From IMG/VR virus record IMGVR_UViG_2563366854_000005: 27,085 nucleotides of DNA. One strand, 5' to 3'. A program made the translations under genes and the position numbers. The DNA comes from a virus (Duplodnaviria > Heunggongvirae > Uroviricota > Caudoviricetes). Positions 1-10,959 of this stretch are shown here, piece after piece (position 1 is the first letter of the stretch; each line of letters starts with the position of its first letter). A model generated the notes under the pieces. The model was not told where the DNA came from and made no database searches. It worked only from the letters and a program-made list of their open reading frames with translations.

Positions 1-906
1 CTATATTTCCAGACATCTGTTATCACTTAACCCATTACAAGCCCGCTGCCGCAGATATTCCCGTGGCGAGCGATAACCCAGCGCACTATGCGGATGCCAT
101 TCGTTATAATGCTCGAACGCCTCTGCAAGGTTCTTTGCTGCCGTTAACCCGTCTGGTTTGGGCATGATACTGATGTAGTCACGCTTTATCGTTTTCACGA
201 AGCTCTCTGCTATTCCGTTACTCTCCGGACTCCGCACCGCCGTGTTCTTCGGTTCAAGTCCCAACATCCGGGCGAACTGGCGTGTTTCATTAGCCCGGTA
301 GCATGAACCATTATCCGTCAGCCACTCCACTGGAGACGACGGAAGATCGTTGCCGAAGCGGCGTTCCACCGCTCCCAGCATGACGTCCTGTACTGTTTCA
401 CTGTTGAAGCCGCCGGTAGTCACCGCCCAGTGCAGTGCCTCACGATCACAGCAGTCCAGCGCGAACGTGACACGCAGTCTCTCTCCGTTATCACAGCAGA
501 ACTCGAACCCGTCAGAGCACCATCGCTGATTGCTTTCTTTCACGGCCACTCTGCCTGTATGTGCCCGTTTCGATGGCGGTACAGCAGGTTTTCGCTCAAG
601 CAACAGCGCATTCTGGCGCATGATCCGGTAAACACGTTTGGCATTGATCGCAGGCATACCATCAAGTTCTGCCTGTCTGCGAAGCAGCGCCCATACCCGA
701 CGATAACCATACGTGGGCAGCTCTCCGATAACATGGTGTATACGGAGAAGCACATCCGTATCATCAGTGTGACGACTGCGGCGGCCATCCATCCAGTCAT
801 CGGTTCGTCTGAGAATGACGTGCAACTGCGCACGCGACACCCGGAGACAACGGCTGACTAAGCTTACTCCCCATCCCCGGGCAATAAGGGCGCGTGCGCT
901 ATCCAC
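1..906 (-). CDS. insD: IS2 transposase OrfB (InsD), 301 aa
   Basis: ORF-track protein has an rve/DDE integrase-core signature and reads as IS2 InsD. Stop codon (CTA on plus = TAG) is at 1-3; it overlaps insC as expected for the IS3-family frameshift arrangement. Confidence 0.88.
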
Positions 907-1229
907 TTTTTTGCCCGTCCATATTCAACGGCTTCTTTGAGGAGTTCATTTTCCATCGTTTTCTTGCCGAGCAGGCGCTGGAGTTCTTTAATCTGCTTCA
1001 TGGCGGCAGCAAGTTCAGAGGCAGGAACAACCTGTTCTCCGGCGGCGACAGCAGTAAGACTTCCTTCCTGGTATTGCTTACGCCAGAGAAATAACTGGCT
1101 GGCTGCTACACCATGTTGCCGGGCAACGAGGGAGACCGTCATCCCCGGTTCAAAGCTCTGCTGAACAATTGCGATCTTTTCCTGTGTGGTACGCCGTCTG
1201 CGTTTCTCCGGCCCTAAGACATCAATCAT
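864..1229 (-). CDS. insC: IS2 OrfA (InsC), 121 aa HTH protein
   Basis: ORF 864-1274; start placed at the internal Met ([13 protein letters not shown]...), giving 121 aa. Overlaps insD in the usual IS2 configuration. Confidence 0.85.
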
Positions 1230-1304
1230 CTGTTCTCCAATGACTAGTCTAAAAACTAGTATTAAGACTATCACTTATTTAAGTGATATTGGTTGTCTGG
1301 AGAT

Positions 1305-2285
1305 TCAGGGGGCCAGTCTAACCGCACAGTTATGAATCACAATCAGTGCAACCATAATGGTGCTCGGGGCATAGCTTTTATCTACAATGATAGAAAGCAT
1401 TGGCCATGCCAGCACAATCGCGGAGGTATTCATAATAATATACGGGATCCGGCGACCAATTTTATCGGATAACCAACCAAGGAACGGAATGGTCATAAAG
1501 CCGAGAATCGAACTGATCATCAATGCATCTGTTGGAATTGCTTTGTTAAACAATAACGTCTGCACTAAATAGCCTGCAAGGAAAGTCTGAATTAACCCGG
1601 AGTTACCCGCCTGACCAAAACGCAGCCCTGTTGCCAGCCAGAAGGATTTGCTCTGGAACATGCTACCAGCAGGTGCAGGTTTTGCTGTCGGTTGGTTACT
1701 GTCGTTAACCTTCTCAAAGACCGGGCTTTCTTTCAGATTCATACGCAACCAGATAGCAAAGACCATCACGACAACACTCGCCAGGAACGGTATACGCCAT
1801 CCCCACGCCAGCAGTTCCTCTTTACTGAGAATGAAGAACATAAAGGCCCAGATTGCCGTTGCGCTCAAGGTTCCGCAGTTAGTTCCCATAGCCACAAATG
1901 AGGAGATAATTCCGCGCTTACCTTTTGGCGCATATTCCGCCAGCATCGTACCGGCACCGGAAATTTCCGCACCTGCACCCAACCCCTGAATAATACGCAA
2001 CGTCACCAGCAAGATGGGTGCAAAAACACCAATCTGTGCATAGGTCGGTAACACACCAATTAAGGTGGTACAGATCCCCATCATGGTGATGGTAATAAAG
2101 AGCACTTTTTTACGCCCTATTCTGTCGCCCATTTTGCCGAAAATAAATGCTCCGACAATACGCGCCACATAACCTGCACCGTAGGTTCCCATTGCCAGAA
2201 TTAACGCCATTGCCGTTGATGATTCAGGAAAAAATATTTCATGAAACACTAACGCTGCGCCGAGCGAATATAACTGGAAATCCAT
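1305..2285 (-). pseudogene. ydfJ: MFS (metabolite:H+ symporter family) transporter, internal/3' fragment, truncated at both ends
   Basis: 326-aa ORF with the MFS signature G-x3-D-R-x-G-R-K just after the first helix. About 30 N-terminal codons are missing (in-frame TGA two codons upstream of the first Met); those codons are found at 26500-26610. The last 5 codons plus stop are read from IS2 sequence, so the C-terminus is cut by IS2. Confidence 0.75.
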
Positions 2286-2291
2286 AATTCA
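2277..2291. other. Prophage left attachment-site core (direct repeat GAAATCCATAATTCA)
   Basis: Near-identical copy GAAATCCATAAATTCA at 26518-26533; the two copies sit exactly where the split halves of the transporter gene would rejoin (codons ...LEFMDF / MDFQLY...). Confidence 0.6.
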
Positions 2292-2887
2292 CAGGTGTTT
2301 TTTCCCATCCTGTGGTTTCCTTGGCGTTTTCTAGGTTTTTTCAGATAGTTGCATTTTTTAAAAAGCATCCTAAGTTCGATCTCAGTGTCTATCTGGGGCC
2401 CATTTCTGTCCCATATATGCCCCAAAAAACTCCTCAACAGATAAGTAGTTTTTTCATGGAGTTACGCGTAAAATCAATAACGGCTGGAAATCATTCAATA
2501 CTCGCACTATCGAAAAATTTACCAGCCAACCGCAGCACGTTCTTGCATAAGGCGTGTCTGCGGTTTTTCAACTATTCAGATACATCACTCCCATCACATT
2601 CATTCCTCCACATCAAAGGCATATAGGCTATATCACCTTGATATTTTTCTTCTTCAGATAAAAACTGTTATCTATGTATACTTTTAAACCCAATCCGTGT
2701 AGAGTCTCTGCATAAGATAGTTTGCAGTTGCCACTTCAGCTTGCGCCATAAACCGCCTGATTTTTGCCGCCATCTGTTAGCATTCCTGTATACCTGAAAC
2801 GACAATGTTTATCTACGAACTTTAAGAACACCCAGGATAAAAATTGTCAACTATATCATATATAACACATTACTAATTCGAGGCTAT

Positions 2888-3001
2888 ATGAACAGCATAC
2901 TGATAATCACTTCGCTCCTTATCATATTCAGCATTTTTAGTCATGCTCTAATAAAATTAGGGATTGGCATATCCAATAACCCAGACAAAACCGATGTATA
3001 A
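2888..3001 (+). CDS. Candidate small hydrophobic protein, 37 aa ([37 protein letters not shown])
   Basis: ATG with a GAGG Shine-Dalgarno 5 nt upstream; predicted single transmembrane helix. Not in the ORF track because it is under 60 aa. Confidence 0.3.
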
Positions 3002-3069
3002 GTCAACATATCCTGAATCAGACATACAATATCGCAATGAAAATCAATAATATTTTAAGGAATATATTC

Positions 3070-3303
3070 ATGAAATCAAAAGACACCCTAAAGTGGTTCC
3101 CTGCGCAGCTTCCTGAAGTCAGAATTATCCTAGGGGATGCTGTAGTGGAAGTAGCAAAACAGGGAAGACCTATCAATACCAGAACATTGCTTGATTACAT
3201 TGAAGGAAACATAAAGAAAAAATCATGGCTGGATAACAAAGAATTATTACAAACAGCGATATCAGTTCTTAAAGACAACCAAAATTTAAATGGTAAAATG
3301 TAA
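3070..3303 (+). CDS. ydfK: YdfK/YnaE-family small prophage protein (cold-shock-associated), 77 aa
   Basis: ORF 3037-3303; start placed at the internal ATG at 3070, which has an AAGGA Shine-Dalgarno 9 nt upstream. Sequence (MKSKDTLKWFPAQLPEV...) matches the YdfK/YnaE family. Confidence 0.75.
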   Translation: MKSKDTLKWFPAQLPEVRIILGDAVVEVAKQGRPINTRTLLDYIEGNIKKKSWLDNKELLQTAISVLKDNQNLNGKM

Positions 3304-3619
3304 TATAATAAACTTACTTTTTTATCATTTTTCCACTTTAACAACATTTTGCTCCACTTTTCCACGACCAAACAACTTGAAATCTGGTTAAAATAACACG
3401 CAACACTATTCTTCTTCCTTGAGTCCGCCCGGAACTCGAAAAACAAACCGAGTTAAAGCCATTTTTCACAAAATCGATTTTGGGTCTCACCAAAGTTACG
3501 GGGTTGCATACGCATTCGTTTATTTTCGAACGTGTACATACAAATATGCACAAAAATAATCAAAATTATTTTCTGAGATGCATTATGATATGAACACCAA
3601 TTTCGTATAGAGTCTCACT

Positions 3620-4210
3620 ATGTCTCGAATTTTTGCTTACTGTCGGATATCAACGCTGGATCAGACCACCGAAAATCAACGCCGGGAAATCGAAAGTGCA
3701 GGTTTTAAAATCAAACCTCAGCAAATAATCGAAGAACACATTAGCGGCTCAGCAGCAACCAGTGAGCGTCCTGGTTTTAACCGGTTGCTTGCTCGCCTGA
3801 AATGTGGTGATCAATTGATTGTGACAAAACTGGATCGCCTTGGTTGTAATGCAATGGATATCAGGAAAACAGTGGAACAACTGACCGAAACAGGTATCAG
3901 AGTGCATTGCTTAGCATTGGGGGGCATTGACCTGACCAGTCCAACAGGAAAAATGATGATGCACGTAATTTCAGCAGTCGCTGAATTTGAACGAGACCTT
4001 TTACTTGAACGCACTCATTCCGGGATAGTAAGAGCCCGCGGCGCAGGGAAACGTTTTGGTCGACCACCTGTGTTAAATGAAGAACAGAAACAGGTGGTAT
4101 TCGAACGAATTAAGTCAGGTGTAAGTATAAGTGCCATTGCCCGGGAATTCAAAACCTCGCGGCAAACCATTTTAAGAGCCAAAGCAAAACTTCAGACACC
4201 TGACATATAA
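3620..4210 (+). CDS. pinQ: Serine recombinase / DNA invertase (Pin/Gin/Hin family), 196 aa
   Basis: N-terminal resolvase catalytic motif (YCRISTLDQ, catalytic Ser) and C-terminal HTH; placed next to the tail-fibre assembly gene as in Qin, Rac and e14. Confidence 0.9.
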
Positions 4211-4307: not shown

Positions 4308-4883
4308 CTACGGCAGTGCTGGCCATTCAATATCCGGTGCAGTTGATGTATCAACACGGTTCAGCAACACCCGATACTTTTTCCAGGCTTCCAGCAACAA
4401 GGTTTCTTCCTCCGTTGCGATCTCCAGATCCACAGCATCCTGAAGCGGCGCTATATGCTCACTGGCTATCTGCATCAGGCTGTTTTTTGTTTCTTCCGCC
4501 TCCCGGATCCGGAACAGTTTTTCTGCTTCCGTATCCTTCACCCAGGCTGTGCCGTTCCACTTCTGATATTCCCCTCCCGGCGATAACCAGGTAACATTTT
4601 CCGGTAACGGACCGAGTTCAGAAATAAATAACGCGTCCCCTGATGCCACGTCATAAACCGTTTTACCCCGATGATCTTCAACGAGATGCCACGATGCCTC
4701 ATCACTGTTGAAAACAGCCACGAAGCCTGCCGGAATATCTGGCGGTGCAATATCGGTACTGTTTGCTGGCAGACCTGTATGAGGCGGAATATATGCGTCA
4801 CCTTCACCAATAAATTCATTAGTTCCGGCCAGCAGATTATAAATTTTTATGGTCCGTGGTTGTTCACTCATTCTGAATGCCAT
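4308..4883 (-). CDS. tfaQ: Tail fibre assembly protein (Tfa family), 191 aa
   Basis: 191-aa ORF with Tfa-like sequence. Its start codon overlaps the stop of the upstream tail-fibre fragment by 1 nt (TAATG), typical translational coupling. Confidence 0.85.
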
Positions 4884-5191
4884 TACGCAAGCCTCACAAT
4901 ATAGTTAAATGCGATGTTTTTGACGGTGTTTTCCGCGTTACCAGCAGCGTTAACGGTGATGGTATGTCCATGTGAACCAATCGCAACGGAGTGCGTATGA
5001 GCACCAATACCGACAGTATGTGCGTGTGCACCTGCGCTTGCAGCAGTACCCGATACAGAGTGCGTATGAGCGCCTGCAGAAGAAGTGTTAACACTGTATT
5101 TAGAATAATCAGGTGATCCACTTCCCGGAGCACCACTGGAACCACCTGAAACAAATGTCATCGAATGGGTATGTGCACCGGCTGTCCCCAT
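4883..5191 (-). pseudogene. stfQ: Side tail fibre C-terminal fragment with repeated His-box motifs
   Basis: 102-aa ORF containing GAHTHS-type repeats (four copies) typical of tail-fibre tips. It has no credible start and overlaps the J-like fragment in another frame. Confidence 0.6.
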
Positions 5192-5445
5192 GCATTTACC
5201 GCCCGGACTGTCAGCCTGTAATTTCCCAGCGCCAGCTGCGTGAAGCGATATGTGGTTTCCGTCGTCCGGGCCGTGCTGACCAACCGCTCACTGCCGTCGT
5301 CCGCTGCCACGGTCAGGCGAAGCATAAAGCTCACCCCCTTCACCACCTTCGGCGTGTCCCAGCGCGCCAGCACCTGGTATTCCCCGCTGTCTGCGGTGAC
5401 TTCTGCGGTCAGGTGCTGAACTGCTGGCGGCGTGACACCATTCAC
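5158..5445 (-). pseudogene. Internal fragment of a lambda J-like host-specificity (central tail fibre) protein
   Basis: 95-aa frame (…[23 protein letters not shown]…) resembling an internal J segment. It is out of frame with both the Nu1 remnant upstream and the stf fragment downstream, consistent with deletion scars. Confidence 0.5.
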
Positions 5446-5987
5446 CGTGCCGCTCTGGTCACCGTCAAAGTGCGCCCCGTTATCAGTTCATCCAGCGCGG
5501 CTGCTTTGTTCATGGCTTTGATGATATCCCGTTTCAGGAAATCAACATGTCGGTTTTCCAGTTCCGGAAAACGCCGCTGCACCGACAGGGGGATCCCGTC
5601 GAGAATACTGGCAATTTCACCTGCGATCCGCGACAGCACGAAAGTACAGAATGCGGTTTCCACCACTTCAGCGGAGTCTCTGGCATTTTTCAGCTCCTGT
5701 GCGTCGGCCTGCGCACGCGTAAGTCGATGGCGTTCGTACTCAATAGTCCCTGGCTGGAGATCTGTCTCGCTGGCCTGCCGCAGTTCTTCAACTTCCCGGC
5801 GCAGCTTTTCGTTCTCAATTTCAGCATCCCTTTCGGCATACCATTTTATGACGGCGGCAGAATCATAAAGCACCTCATTACCCTTGCCACCGCCTCGCAG
5901 AACGGGCATTCCCTGTTCCTGCCAGTTCTGAATGGTACGGATACTCGCACCGAAAATGTCAGCCAGCTGCTTTTTGTTGACTTCCAT
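5442..5987 (-). CDS. nohQ: Terminase small subunit Nu1 homologue, C-terminally replaced (deletion-fusion product), 181 aa
   Basis: N-terminal roughly 169 aa are near-identical to lambda Nu1 (MEVNKKQLADIFGASIRTIQNWQEQGMPVLRGGGKGNEV…). The last 12 residues (TGRTLTVTRAAR) are read from fused J-region DNA. No terminase large subunit gene follows. Confidence 0.85.
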   Translation of the reverse strand: MEVNKKQLADIFGASIRTIQNWQEQGMPVLRGGGKGNEVLYDSAAVIKWYAERDAEIENEKLRREVEELRQASETDLQPGTIEYERHRLTRAQADAQELKNARDSAEVVETAFCTFVLSRIAGEIASILDGIPLSVQRRFPELENRHVDFLKRDIIKAMNKAAALDELITGRTLTVTRAAR

Positions 5988-5999
5988 TGTTCATTCCAC

Positions 6000-6176
6000 G
6001 GACAAAAACAGAGAAAGGAAACGACAAAGGCCAAAAAGCCCGCTTTCAGCACCTGTCGTTTCCTTTCTTTTCAGGGGGTATTTTAAATAAAAACATTAAG
6101 TTACGACGAAGAAGAACGGAAACACCTTAAACCGGAAAATTTTCATAAATAGCGAAAACCCGCGAGGTCGCCGCCC
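6000..6176 (-). other. Lambda-type cos region (cosB with cosN; the 12-nt cohesive-end sequence is at 6165-6176)
   Basis: Sequence at 6165-6176 (AGGTCGCCGCCC) is the reverse complement of the lambda cohesive end GGGCGGCGACCT. The adjacent 160 bp toward nohQ is near-identical to the lambda cosB/Nu1 leader. Confidence 0.8.
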
Positions 6177-6375
6177 CGTAACCTGTCGGATCACCGGAAA
6201 GGACCCGTAAAGTGATAATGATTATCATCTACATATCACAACGTGCGTGGAGGCCATCAAACCACGTCAAATAATCAATTATGACGCAGGTATCGTATTA
6301 ATTGATCTGCATCAACTTAACGTAAAAACAACTTCAGACAATACAAATCAGCGACACTGAATACGGGGCAACCTC

Positions 6376-6609
6376 ATGTCAACGAAGAACAGAACCCGCA
6401 GAACAACAACCCGCAACATCCGCTTTCCTAACCAAATGATTGAACAAATTAACATCGCTCTTGAGCAAAAAGGGTCCGGGAATTTCTCAGCCTGGGTCAT
6501 TGAAGCCTGCCGCCGGAGACTGTGCTCAGAAAAAAGAGTTTCTTCTGAAGCAAACAAAGAAAAGAGTGACATTACTGAATTGCTCAGAAAACAGGTCAGA
6601 CCAGATTGA
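6376..6609 (+). CDS. ynfO: Small prophage protein YnfO, 77 aa
   Basis: ORF-track protein MSTKNRTRRTTTRNIRFPNQMIEQINIALEQKG…; position between cos and ydfO as in Qin. Confidence 0.7.
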   Translation: MSTKNRTRRTTTRNIRFPNQMIEQINIALEQKGSGNFSAWVIEACRRRLCSEKRVSSEANKEKSDITELLRKQVRPD

Positions 6610-7729: not shown

Positions 7730-8075
7730 GATGGTGTTAACTCCAGTCATCGCTGGCACTACCACTGCTGGTTCAGAGTTAAAAAAAACTATGATTTTTT
7801 TCATGATGTTACCGTAGTATGTGAGTATCCATCGAATAGACACCAAGCAAAAAAGCTCCCGAAGGAGCCTTCATTTTCACTTTTTTAAATCCAACGACAG
7901 ACGGCTGGCATTTAAGTATTGTGAAATATTATCAAATGTAATCATCATTGATTTACAAAAGATACATTTTGCCCCGAAAGGATTCATGTCAGAAACATCA
8001 AAAGATGATGTTCTATACTGGGAACCATGACAACACGGGCATCTAAAGTGAATATGGTTTGTAATATTGTCTACC

Positions 8076-8288
8076 TCAAAGCGCCACTACATGAACAGCG
8101 GCAGGACCTTTAGGTCCGTTCTCAATACCAAATTCAACTTCCTGATTCTCAGTTAATGTTTTGAAATCGTTGCTCTGAATTGCTGAGAAATGGACAAACA
8201 CATCTTTGCTGCCATCTTTCGGCGTGATGAAACCAAAACCTTTTTCAGGGTTAAACCATTTCACTAAACCAGTCATTTTGTTAGACAT
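8076..8288 (-). CDS. cspI: CspA-family cold-shock protein, 70 aa
   Basis: Cold-shock domain with RNP1/RNP2 motifs (KGFGFI, VFVHF). Order cspI-rzpQ-rrrQ as in Qin. Confidence 0.85.
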
Positions 8289-8650
8289 AATTATTACCTT
8301 TTGAAGAAATTAGCCCTTGGGCAGAATGGTCCGAAAAAAAATATCAGAGAGAAAAACCAACAAGGAAATCTCAAGAGGTACAAATAATAAAATTATAACA
8401 ATGACTGCTTCAGATAAATTTGTAACAAACCAGAACACCATTAACGCATGATTAACCACCCATAGCAAGGATTACTTTTGTAAAGAAAAACACAGCAATG
8501 AAAGAATAGCTTTATTTATTAATAAAACGTGTCATTCTGATTAAGACCTTTTATCTTACCCTTAAGATTTCAGGAATTTTGGCTCATGGAAGAGTCCTTT
8601 TTATTTAAATTTTACATTCCGCGATGTAAATGTTCCGATTTAATATTACC

Positions 8651-9678: not shown

Positions 9679-9986
9679 AGATATTTATGATGAGGACGCT
9701 CGTGCTTATTGGCAGGATTTTCAATCTTAAAGGAGTACTGATGCTGCAGATAAGACTCAACTTTTTCTGACAATTTTTCTGCTACTTCCAGGAAGACTTG
9801 CCGGACGCTCCTTCTGGCTGCTGCCTCATAAAACTCCAGCGCAGCTCCTTCAACACGGTCCATGGCGACATCCAGGTCAAAAATTTCACCGTCAAAGCGT
9901 TCTTTGTCCTGTAAGGCTACAGTTACCGTAACTTTATTCTCAAAATTACGGACTCCTTTCACAACCAGTTCATAGTCTTGAGTCAT
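9675..9986 (-). CDS. ydfR: YdfR (DUF1327) prophage protein, 103 aa
   Basis: 103-aa ORF between the holin and endolysin genes, overlapping rrrQ by 4 nt. Confidence 0.7.
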
Positions 9987-10680: not shown

Positions 10681-10959
10681 GATTGTGGTGCTTTTTGTGG
10701 GAGTCATCCACTTACGCACTTTGTTTTGCCATGCCAGCAGTTAGCTTCTGCTGTAAAACTATTCATGCAGCAAACCTGCACTTCACCACAATGGTTAGCA
10801 TACTTTTCCTGATTAAGATTTTGCCAAATATGCTAGCCATTGTTTCATGTATTGGACCTCCTTACTTTTTATTAAAGAGATCCAATATTCACTACTCTGT
10901 CCGTATCTCTACTCAGGCATCAGCCTTCTTCGTTATCGTATACAGACGAGCGATGAATT

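Follow-up and report, generated by a model that had tools for sequence, protein, structure and literature searches.

In phage lambda, the IHF site I1 of cosB is placed between the R3 and R2 sites (PMC9026076, PMC4669245). R3 extends over bp 50-65, its segment in contact with the small terminase subunit (TerS) covers bp 55-63, and mutations at R3 bp 56, 58 and 59 are known to affect packaging (PMC9026076). The terminase remains on the cosB end and packaging proceeds in the cosB-to-Nu1 direction (PMC9026076); termination requires the cosQ and cosN of a second cos (PMC9026076, PMC4669245, PMC6687093). The large subunit (TerL) is bound by the C-terminal 30-40 residues of TerS, and a TerS deprived of its last 30 residues binds TerL poorly (PMC9026076).

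The cos of a resident prophage is also used in trans. Feiss et al. (2015) reported that an infecting phage initiates packaging at the cos of a resident prophage of the same specificity and, in their 'helper / passive prophage' system, tandem passive prophages gave 1-4 virions per cell (PMC4669245). From a lone prophage cos, packaging runs into bacterial DNA and the motor stalls, yielding a tailless and non-infectious particle; initiation at the resident cos cuts the yield of viable helper progeny, and a crossover downstream of the initiation at a lone prophage cos gives a recombinant phage (PMC4669245). In the sister cryptic prophage DLP12, which carries nohD, cos and nu1 are functional once recombined into lambda, with junctions that cluster at cos (De Paepe et al. 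2014, PMC3945230). Phages of the cos type do not perform lateral transduction (PMC12829572). The Gram-negative cos-type PICIs carry lambda-like cosQ and cosN sequences beside a winged-helix TerS-like gene, rpp, and have no packaging genes of their own; they are devoid of a phage-type cosB, they encode as Rpp a divergent protein (139-154 aa) by which TerS is retargeted, and induction of the helper triggers their excision and replication.

The Qin cryptic prophage of E. coli was first defined via lambda hybrids that had acquired its late region. Kaiser 1980 is said to describe lambda qin hybrids, and Kotani et al. 1992 reportedly deals with the cutting of the E. coli chromosome by the lambda terminase. 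Kaiser 1980 is cited for Qin in PMC6379469, and no paper on the Qin cos itself was found in the literature on nohA with cos, terminase or cryptic prophage.

The Qin element and its cos site

The window, that is the whole stretch of 27,085 nucleotides analysed here, contains the Qin cryptic prophage of E. coli, and the gene beside its cos is already named nohA in RefSeq and UniProt. A 2.9 kb query around the locus was 100% identical to many E. coli chromosomes, in which tfaQ, tail-fibre and J-related pseudogenes, nohA, ynfO and ydfO are annotated, and 522 of the 5426 complete E. coli genomes (about 1 in 10) cover at least 80% of this query. The element occupies positions 2277-26528 (24.25 kb), is bounded by 11-bp att repeats (at 2277 and 26518) and is 99.975% identical over 24 kb to the chromosome of strain FORC 064. 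As in K-12, it sits between ydfJ and rspB and has the late-region genes of Qin; ynfO, ydfO and tfaQ flank nohA in both, and the sequence right of cos is 99.9% identical to that of K-12 Qin. In this strain, neither int (a putative integrase of 431 aa that includes arm-binding and catalytic domains) nor xis is interrupted, whereas int/xis is IS-disrupted in K-12 and FORC 064. Unlike K-12 Qin, the element is also devoid of dicA, dicB and dicF, and dicC is missing as well. The early region is occupied by IS elements, and neither a replication module nor an immunity/regulatory region was found in the near-identical RefSeq annotation or by Pfam scans. At its left end, the window has an IS2/ydfJ junction that was not found in this form in any of the 5426 complete genomes. 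The complete phage PhiR42_1 has the same late-region gene order together with full Nu1 and A genes and illustrates the state of Qin before its decay.

A complete lambda-type cos (cosQ, cosN, R3, the I1 region, R2 and R1) was identified within positions 5442-6206 on the minus strand. On this strand, 5442-6430 as a whole corresponds to the two lambda ends placed end to end. The 12-nt cohesive-end sequence of cosN, GGGCGGCGACCT, located between both nick sites and corresponding to lambda nt 1-12, lies at 6165-6176 (minus strand); this exact match is the sole one in the window, for a chance expectation of 0.03. It is adjacent to the lambda right-end block (lambda 48249-48502; 6177-6430, minus strand), which is identical at 254 of 254 positions and reaches the start of ynfO on the other strand. 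Inside this block, the heptamer GGGTCCT at 6200-6206 (minus strand) is presumably cosQ (lambda 48473-48479), the subsite of packaging termination. In cosB, the critical TerS-binding site R3 (lambda bp 50-65) was found at 6112-6127 (minus strand), the R3-R2 spacer with I1 at 6069-6111 (minus strand), R2 (lambda bp 109-124) at 6053-6068 and R1 (lambda bp 151-166) at 6012-6027 (minus strand). R2 stands on the plus strand, inverted with respect to R3 and R1, shows an exact match to the R core and is identical to that of lambda. I1 was located from the published order as the region between R3 and R2. All three R cores were thus found, R3, R2 and R1 have the order and orientation of the lambda sites, and the spacing between cosN and R3, which is considered critical, is that of lambda with zero indels.

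The first-pass annotation had described cosN and the cosB leader as essentially identical to lambda, and this was borne out since cosN is identical and cosB is identical at 185 of 190 positions. Over lambda 1-190 (cosN and cosB), the five differences are C53T in R3 (window 6124), A73G (6104) and T102C (6075) in the R3-R2 spacer, a deletion of A137 between R2 and R1 (near window 6041) and C151T at the first base of R1 (window 6027). These five differences, together with the position of C53T within the CGTTTCC core common to the R sites and the 1-bp change of the R2-R1 spacing, could indicate that the likeness to cos is fortuitous or degraded and that the region is functionally dead. The variants were compared with three complete phage genomes, PhiR42_1, PhiR70_1 and 2H10. 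A73G, T102C and the A137 deletion are present in all three, and C53T and C151T also occur in 2H10 and PhiR70_1. The sequence of 2H10 is one base apart from the element over lambda 1-190, the element being identical to lambda at that base, so that relative to lambda and the three phages no base is private to the element. Furthermore, C53T falls inside R3 yet outside the contact segment (bp 55-63, unaltered here) and outside bp 56, 58 and 59, and cosQ, cosN and the cosN-to-R3 spacing are those of lambda. Mutations in cosN or the R sites had been named beforehand as a refutation; cosN is clean, and the R sites have C53T and C151T, both shared with complete phages. Because all five cosB differences occur in complete phage genomes, the cos is free of private damage and has a natural allele that such genomes share. 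The comparison phages are probably viable, having been deposited as complete genomes with a named host. With every variant base found in 2H10, PhiR70_1 or PhiR42_1, a dead cos is scarcely credible.

NohA and the deletion scars

The nohA gene (5442-5987, minus strand; 'noh' stands for Nu-one homologue) codes for a Nu1 (TerS) homologue of 181 aa, which covers the entire Phage_Nu1 profile of Pfam (PF07471, 1-164/164, E = 4e-101). The protein belongs to the same 90% cluster as UniProt NOHA_ECOLI, 'Prophage DNA-packing protein NohA', and its exact sequence is present on at least 1000 contigs. Residues 1-169 are identical to lambda Nu1 at 167 of 169 positions, the exceptions being A75T and L132I. 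The N-terminal winged-helix (residues 1-68, the solved DNA-binding domain 1j9i_A) is identical to that of lambda TerS, and a single difference, A75T, separates residues 1-98 from 6hn7_B, the lambda TerS chain in the crystal structure with RppC. These results are in agreement with the earlier proposal that the cosB-binding winged-helix domain has been kept.

After I169, NohA is wholly divergent and residues 170-181 read TGRTLTVTRAAR. Codons 1-169 (5481-5987) are derived from Nu1, and codons 170-181 with the stop codon are out-of-frame J DNA; the fusion, previously set at codon about 169, is exactly there, the lambda match stopping at residue 169. The loss of the C-terminal tail that interacts with terminase had also been claimed. 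Its kind is confirmed but not its extent, since 12 residues are replaced in a TerL-binding region of about 30-40, and NohA has thus lost just the last 12 residues of this region, not the whole tail. As residues 170-181 are replaced and similarity to gpA is absent from the window, NohA is, on sequence grounds, a TerS homologue and probably not a component of a working terminase. No sigma-70-type promoter was detected upstream of nohA in a promoter scan, and the one weak sigma-70-like candidate lies inside the gene. In a published boric-acid screen, a weak phenotype was attributed to a nohA deletion; it was uncomplemented and is judged uninformative.

The first scar is carried by the octamer GATAACGG (junction 1; 5478-5485, minus strand), which links Nu1 at lambda nt 697 to J at lambda nt 17306. 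The J' fragment that follows (5178-5480, minus strand) corresponds to lambda J nt 17306-17608, about codons 601-701, with approximately 92% identity over 303-307 nt; it is out of frame with nohA, and RefSeq lists it as a 'J-related' pseudogene. At a second junction, close to 5177/5178, it is joined to stf' (4884-5177, minus strand), a C-terminal side-tail-fibre fragment annotated in RefSeq as a tail-fibre pseudogene, of which about 230 nt are 90% identical to the 3' end of lambda stf and the first ~90 nt have no lambda match. The tail-fibre assembly gene tfaQ (4308-4883, minus strand; 191 aa; Pfam Caudo_TAP, E = 2e-43; tfaQ in RefSeq) is intact, with scattered substitutions only relative to lambda tfa, and pinQ lies beyond it. 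The search of the window by tblastn with gpA, gpW and gpB gave zero matches, and no head gene is present in the RefSeq annotation of the FORC 064 chromosome over the 24 kb at 99.975% identity. The fusion of Nu1 to J-region DNA, the second scar between the J fragment and a tail-fibre tip, and the loss of the terminase large subunit and head genes had all been read from the sequence at first pass, and each of them is confirmed by these data. The cos-Nu1 segment therefore has the subsites, order, orientation and spacing of lambda, with identical cosQ and cosN, but it differs from lambda in that no TerL gene (A) comes next, residues 170-181 of Nu1 are replaced and the site is isolated within a decayed prophage.

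Strain F829 has this Nu1 end (nt 697) fused to J nt 16727, and the window allele equals the F829 allele on both sides minus the 579 bp between two copies of GATAACGG. The window scar therefore arose in at least two steps, a join of Nu1 697 to J 16727 followed by the 579-bp loss between the repeats. In K-12 Qin, the homology of Nu1 to lambda extends to nt 719 and is immediately followed by stf, which results in a NohA of 189 aa and a StfQ starting on the gpA start codon, whereas in the window Nu1 stops at nt 697 and joins the J fragment. The scar of K-12 is a distinct event.

Expected outcome of packaging by a helper

As cosB lies at lower coordinates than cosN, packaging from this cos would run toward window coordinate 1. 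The path crosses a 3.9 kb remnant (nohA, J', stf', tfaQ, pinQ and ydfK), then attL at 2277 and then host DNA; the main body of Qin (20 kb) is situated on the opposite side of cos. A packageable unit consists of two cos in the same orientation, one head-full (roughly 38-51 kb) apart, and the window holds one cosN only, hence no cos-to-cos unit. The DNA beyond the window was judged from FORC 064, used as a stand-in for the source strain, in which no second cosN was found within 50 kb downstream in the packaging direction, a region that includes ydfJ, marRAB, the lsr operon and hipBA. Moreover, the element cannot make concatemers because it has no replication module and no immunity/regulatory region.

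From these data, we consider, with a probability of about 85%, that the locus is the packaging-initiation module of a decayed Qin prophage and that a helper starts abortive packaging there. Deletions would have removed the stretch that begins with the last 12 Nu1 codons and reaches the side-tail-fibre tip, leaving this module, whose cos would work in cis only. During lytic growth of a co-resident or infecting phage of lambda specificity, the TerS/TerL of this phage would bind R3-I1-R2-R1 and nick the chromosomal cosN, and packaging would proceed leftwards through nohA, tfaQ, pinQ, attL and host DNA. A downstream cos being missing, the motor would stall at a full head and give a tailless, non-infectious particle. 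The useful by-products would be a double-strand break and homologous DNA from the late region, both of which would favour recombination placing the Qin cos and late genes into the helper. NohA would be dispensable for packaging by the helper and is most likely a passenger whose expression would come solely from transcripts reading through from the Qin late operon. The steps carried out by the helper are drawn from published lambda biology, and the cutting of cos at this locus is predicted.

The first-pass annotation had gone further and proposed that cos is kept so that a lambdoid helper packages and transfers the element, in the manner of a satellite or PICI. The cos is intact, in this strain int and xis seem to be full-length ORFs, and with 11-bp att repeats bounding 24.25 kb a dimer equals one lambda genome. 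Separately, given that int and xis look full length, a rare excised dimer of this length would be packageable in principle. Helpers may often be present as well, since lambda-like cos/Nu1 sequences are frequent (the median E. coli genome matches them at 5 places), and chromosomal passive prophages really are packaged by a helper (PMC4669245). Like Qin, the passive prophages of Feiss et al. are repressed and non-excised, with a chromosomal cos used in trans by the helper terminase; theirs, unlike Qin, have two tandem cos one genome length apart. In the element there is one cos, none follows within 50 kb in FORC 064, packaging exits the prophage after 3.9 kb, and IS elements stand in place of the replication genes and of the immunity/regulatory region. 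The likeness to PICIs lies in cosQ and cosN beside a winged-helix TerS-like gene, in the want of packaging genes and in a putative integrase ORF of its own (431 aa). Unlike PICIs, the element has a phage-type R3/R2/R1, that is a cosB of the helper's own type, has no replication module or helper-responsive regulator, and its neighbouring protein is a near-identical TerS (167/169), not a redirecting Rpp. The sister alleles in K-12 and FORC 064 have an IS-disrupted int. The junction 1 sequence was found in IMG/VR in three contigs only, whose ids contain 10-digit IMG taxon numbers and which gave no evidence of encapsidation; from the id format alone, they are taken as prophage calls in isolate genomes, not as virus-particle samples. 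Satellite-like transfer is thus very unlikely.

Regarding packaging in trans, a helper of lambda specificity should indeed initiate at this cos, which it is expected to recognise and cut; such initiation has already been published (PMC4669245). Transducing particles carrying Qin, which the same claim implied, are not an expected outcome because packaging exits the prophage, the cos is single, replication is absent and the published expectation is a stalled particle; packaging from the element is expected to be abortive and its productive mobilisation is unlikely. As stated in the first-pass annotation, the finding adds nothing new, since Qin, nohA and the use of a resident prophage cos by a helper for packaging have all been described.

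Another proposal is that cos-nohA has been selected as a decoy harming lambda-type phages, the lone cos wasting terminase and proheads, and NohA binding cosB or TerS with an altered tail that recruits TerL poorly. Initiation at a resident cos reduces viable progeny (Feiss et al., PMC4669245), TerS without its last 30 residues is poor at binding TerL (PMC9026076), and the PICI Rpp offers the precedent of a TerS-like winged-helix protein encoded beside cos and able to block helper packaging. The presence of the exact NohA allele on at least 1000 contigs and the many independent remnants cut at one codon, 169/170, would also fit a selected function. However, one to few chromosomal cos copies would face many phage genomes, the scan gave nohA no promoter of its own, and many other remnants retain the full Nu1 with part of A, so that truncation at codon 169 is not required. 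Furthermore, lambda grows normally on K-12, a carrier of nohA and nohD. The decoy, including the part ascribed to NohA, is considered highly improbable, and the remnant of a packaging-initiation module remains the preferred reading.

A recurrent breakpoint in Nu1

Many independent lambdoid remnants were observed to be truncated at one Nu1 position, lambda nt 697-699. In a large protein collection, NohA-like proteins carry many different C-terminal tails, nearly all beginning right after ...DELI(169). In IMG/VR contigs, at least 12 different right-hand partners follow ...GATGAACTGATA or ...GATACC, including gene A at nt 2246 and 2489, J at 16140, ~16480, 17306 and 17971, and several tail-fibre sites; these contigs are prophages with different late regions. 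The protein tails and strain F829 add gpB, J 16727 and J near 17230 as further partners. The recurrence of one breakpoint in many independent remnants counts against the explanation given above, as simple random decay does not account for it.

In about 20 of 120 sampled loci, rearrangement has left a junction within nt 650-3700. Four of these ~20 junctions fall at nt 697-699, each with a different partner, which is about 200 times the density elsewhere in gene A. This sample, picked via an anchor upstream of the breakpoint, is modest and its strains are related, which makes the number of independent events uncertain; the junction counts from 181-nt queries are upper bounds, because separate pieces could be joined into one place. 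Many junctions show short or imperfect microhomology (GATA, TACC or GATAAC(C)GG), a feature that accounts for the partner chosen and not for the fixed position of the left end. Post hoc, the heptamer TAC[C/G]GGG was found only twice on the top strand of the 3.77 kb stretch from cos to B, at the cosN nick and at the hotspot. Nicking by terminase at this cosN-like heptamer is not favoured as the cause of the hotspot, since no deletion with its end at the true cosN nick was found in IMG/VR.

A tentative reading, which we regard as unlikely, is that the cos-nohA remnant is no chance leftover and that lambdoid prophages are repeatedly inactivated by deletions from nt 697-699. The cause would be either breakage or stalling specific to a site at the Nu1/A boundary or selective retention of a cos/TerS module without TerL, such as a decoy for packaging. 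Such deletions would start 12-14 nt before the TerL start codon and run rightwards over 1.5 to more than 20 kb. In every case TerL would be lost, and cos would be left in place with the part of TerS that binds DNA.

For the biology of these prophages, a cos such as that of Qin should be cuttable by any helper of lambda specificity, with a lower helper yield and hybrid phages as the expected consequences. The breakpoint hotspot is the only part that may repay more work: if it reflects a true site-specific event at the Nu1/A boundary, it would bear on how prophages become permanently defective.

Deletion joints in terminase and tail-fibre DNA

Many lambdoid prophage remnants carry deletions whose left ends coincide at lambda nt 697-699, at codon 169/170 of Nu1 and 12-14 nt ahead of the gpA start. 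This left end was found in Qin at window 5478-5485, at the comparison loci L012-L024, L034, L104 and L142-L146 and in the NohA-like proteins P0008-P0028. The right-hand partners of these deletions vary (12 to about 20) and lie within A, B, J and tail-fibre genes. Among the roughly 20 loci with a junction in an anchor-selected sample, 4 had it inside the 3-nt window of nt 697-699.

On the right side, one tail-fibre joint, (A)ACCGCG(C/T)TGACAGAC, was observed behind three unlike left partners, which are Nu1/A nt 719, the capsid gene E and A nt 880 (loci L008, the K-12 MG1655 Qin, L080 and L105). A second joint, CCGCGTTGCTTCATCC, follows both Nu1 nt 697 and A nt 2179 (loci L023 and L070). As the same right-side joints stand behind unlike left partners, recurrent joints are present on the right side too and not on the left only.

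In K-12 MG1655 (L008, about 9840-9848), the annotated StfQ has the GTG start of gpA as its first codon; three gpA codons (V-N-I) are followed, in the same reading frame, by the last 317 residues of a side tail fibre. The tail-fibre fragment has therefore been placed behind the terminase translation signals.

The cosN of phage PhiR70_1 (L006) reads GGGCGGAGACCT, in which the seventh base of the cohesive end is A instead of C, and its cos is otherwise Qin-like. This change is a natural polymorphism of the cohesive end.

Replaced immunity region and RNA family matches

The window Qin lacks the region for immunity and division inhibition that K-12 carries (dicC, dicA, ydfABC, dicF, dicB and ydfD); 16980-25320 is occupied instead by an ISNCY-family fragment, copies of IS600 and IS30, a methyltransferase gene, a DUF977 fragment and a gene whose 543-aa product has an Rv2179c-like 3'-5' exoribonuclease domain. 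An Rfam match to the sok antitoxin RNA was detected on the minus strand at 18182-18353 (104 bits vs a gathering score of 59), a stretch that the annotation of the near-identical RefSeq chromosome leaves without a gene. The match is probably a second locus of the hok/sok type, in addition to hokD. Further Rfam matches lie on the minus strand at 4342-4540, 8049-8434 and 10944-11336: tfaQ contains a match to the IS009 RNA family, and cspI and cspB are preceded by thermoregulator leaders of the cspA type.

Window boundary, integration genes and element size

Nucleotides 1-695 match IS2 (99.9% to K-12 IS2E), which appears to border the ydfJ remnant near 1320; the same form of this IS2/ydfJ junction (1-1320) was not found in any complete E. 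coli genome of the collection, which therefore does not include the source strain.

In the source strain, Qin xis (83 aa) and int (431 aa) are unbroken open reading frames (24914-26480), and the integrase has arm-binding and catalytic domains. The int gene is without the interruptions seen in K-12, where intQ carries IS2, and in E. coli FORC 064, where an IS66-family element lies in int. Between its att repeats (2277-26528), Qin measures 24.25 kb, almost exactly half of the 48.5-kb lambda genome, and a dimer would therefore equal one head-full.
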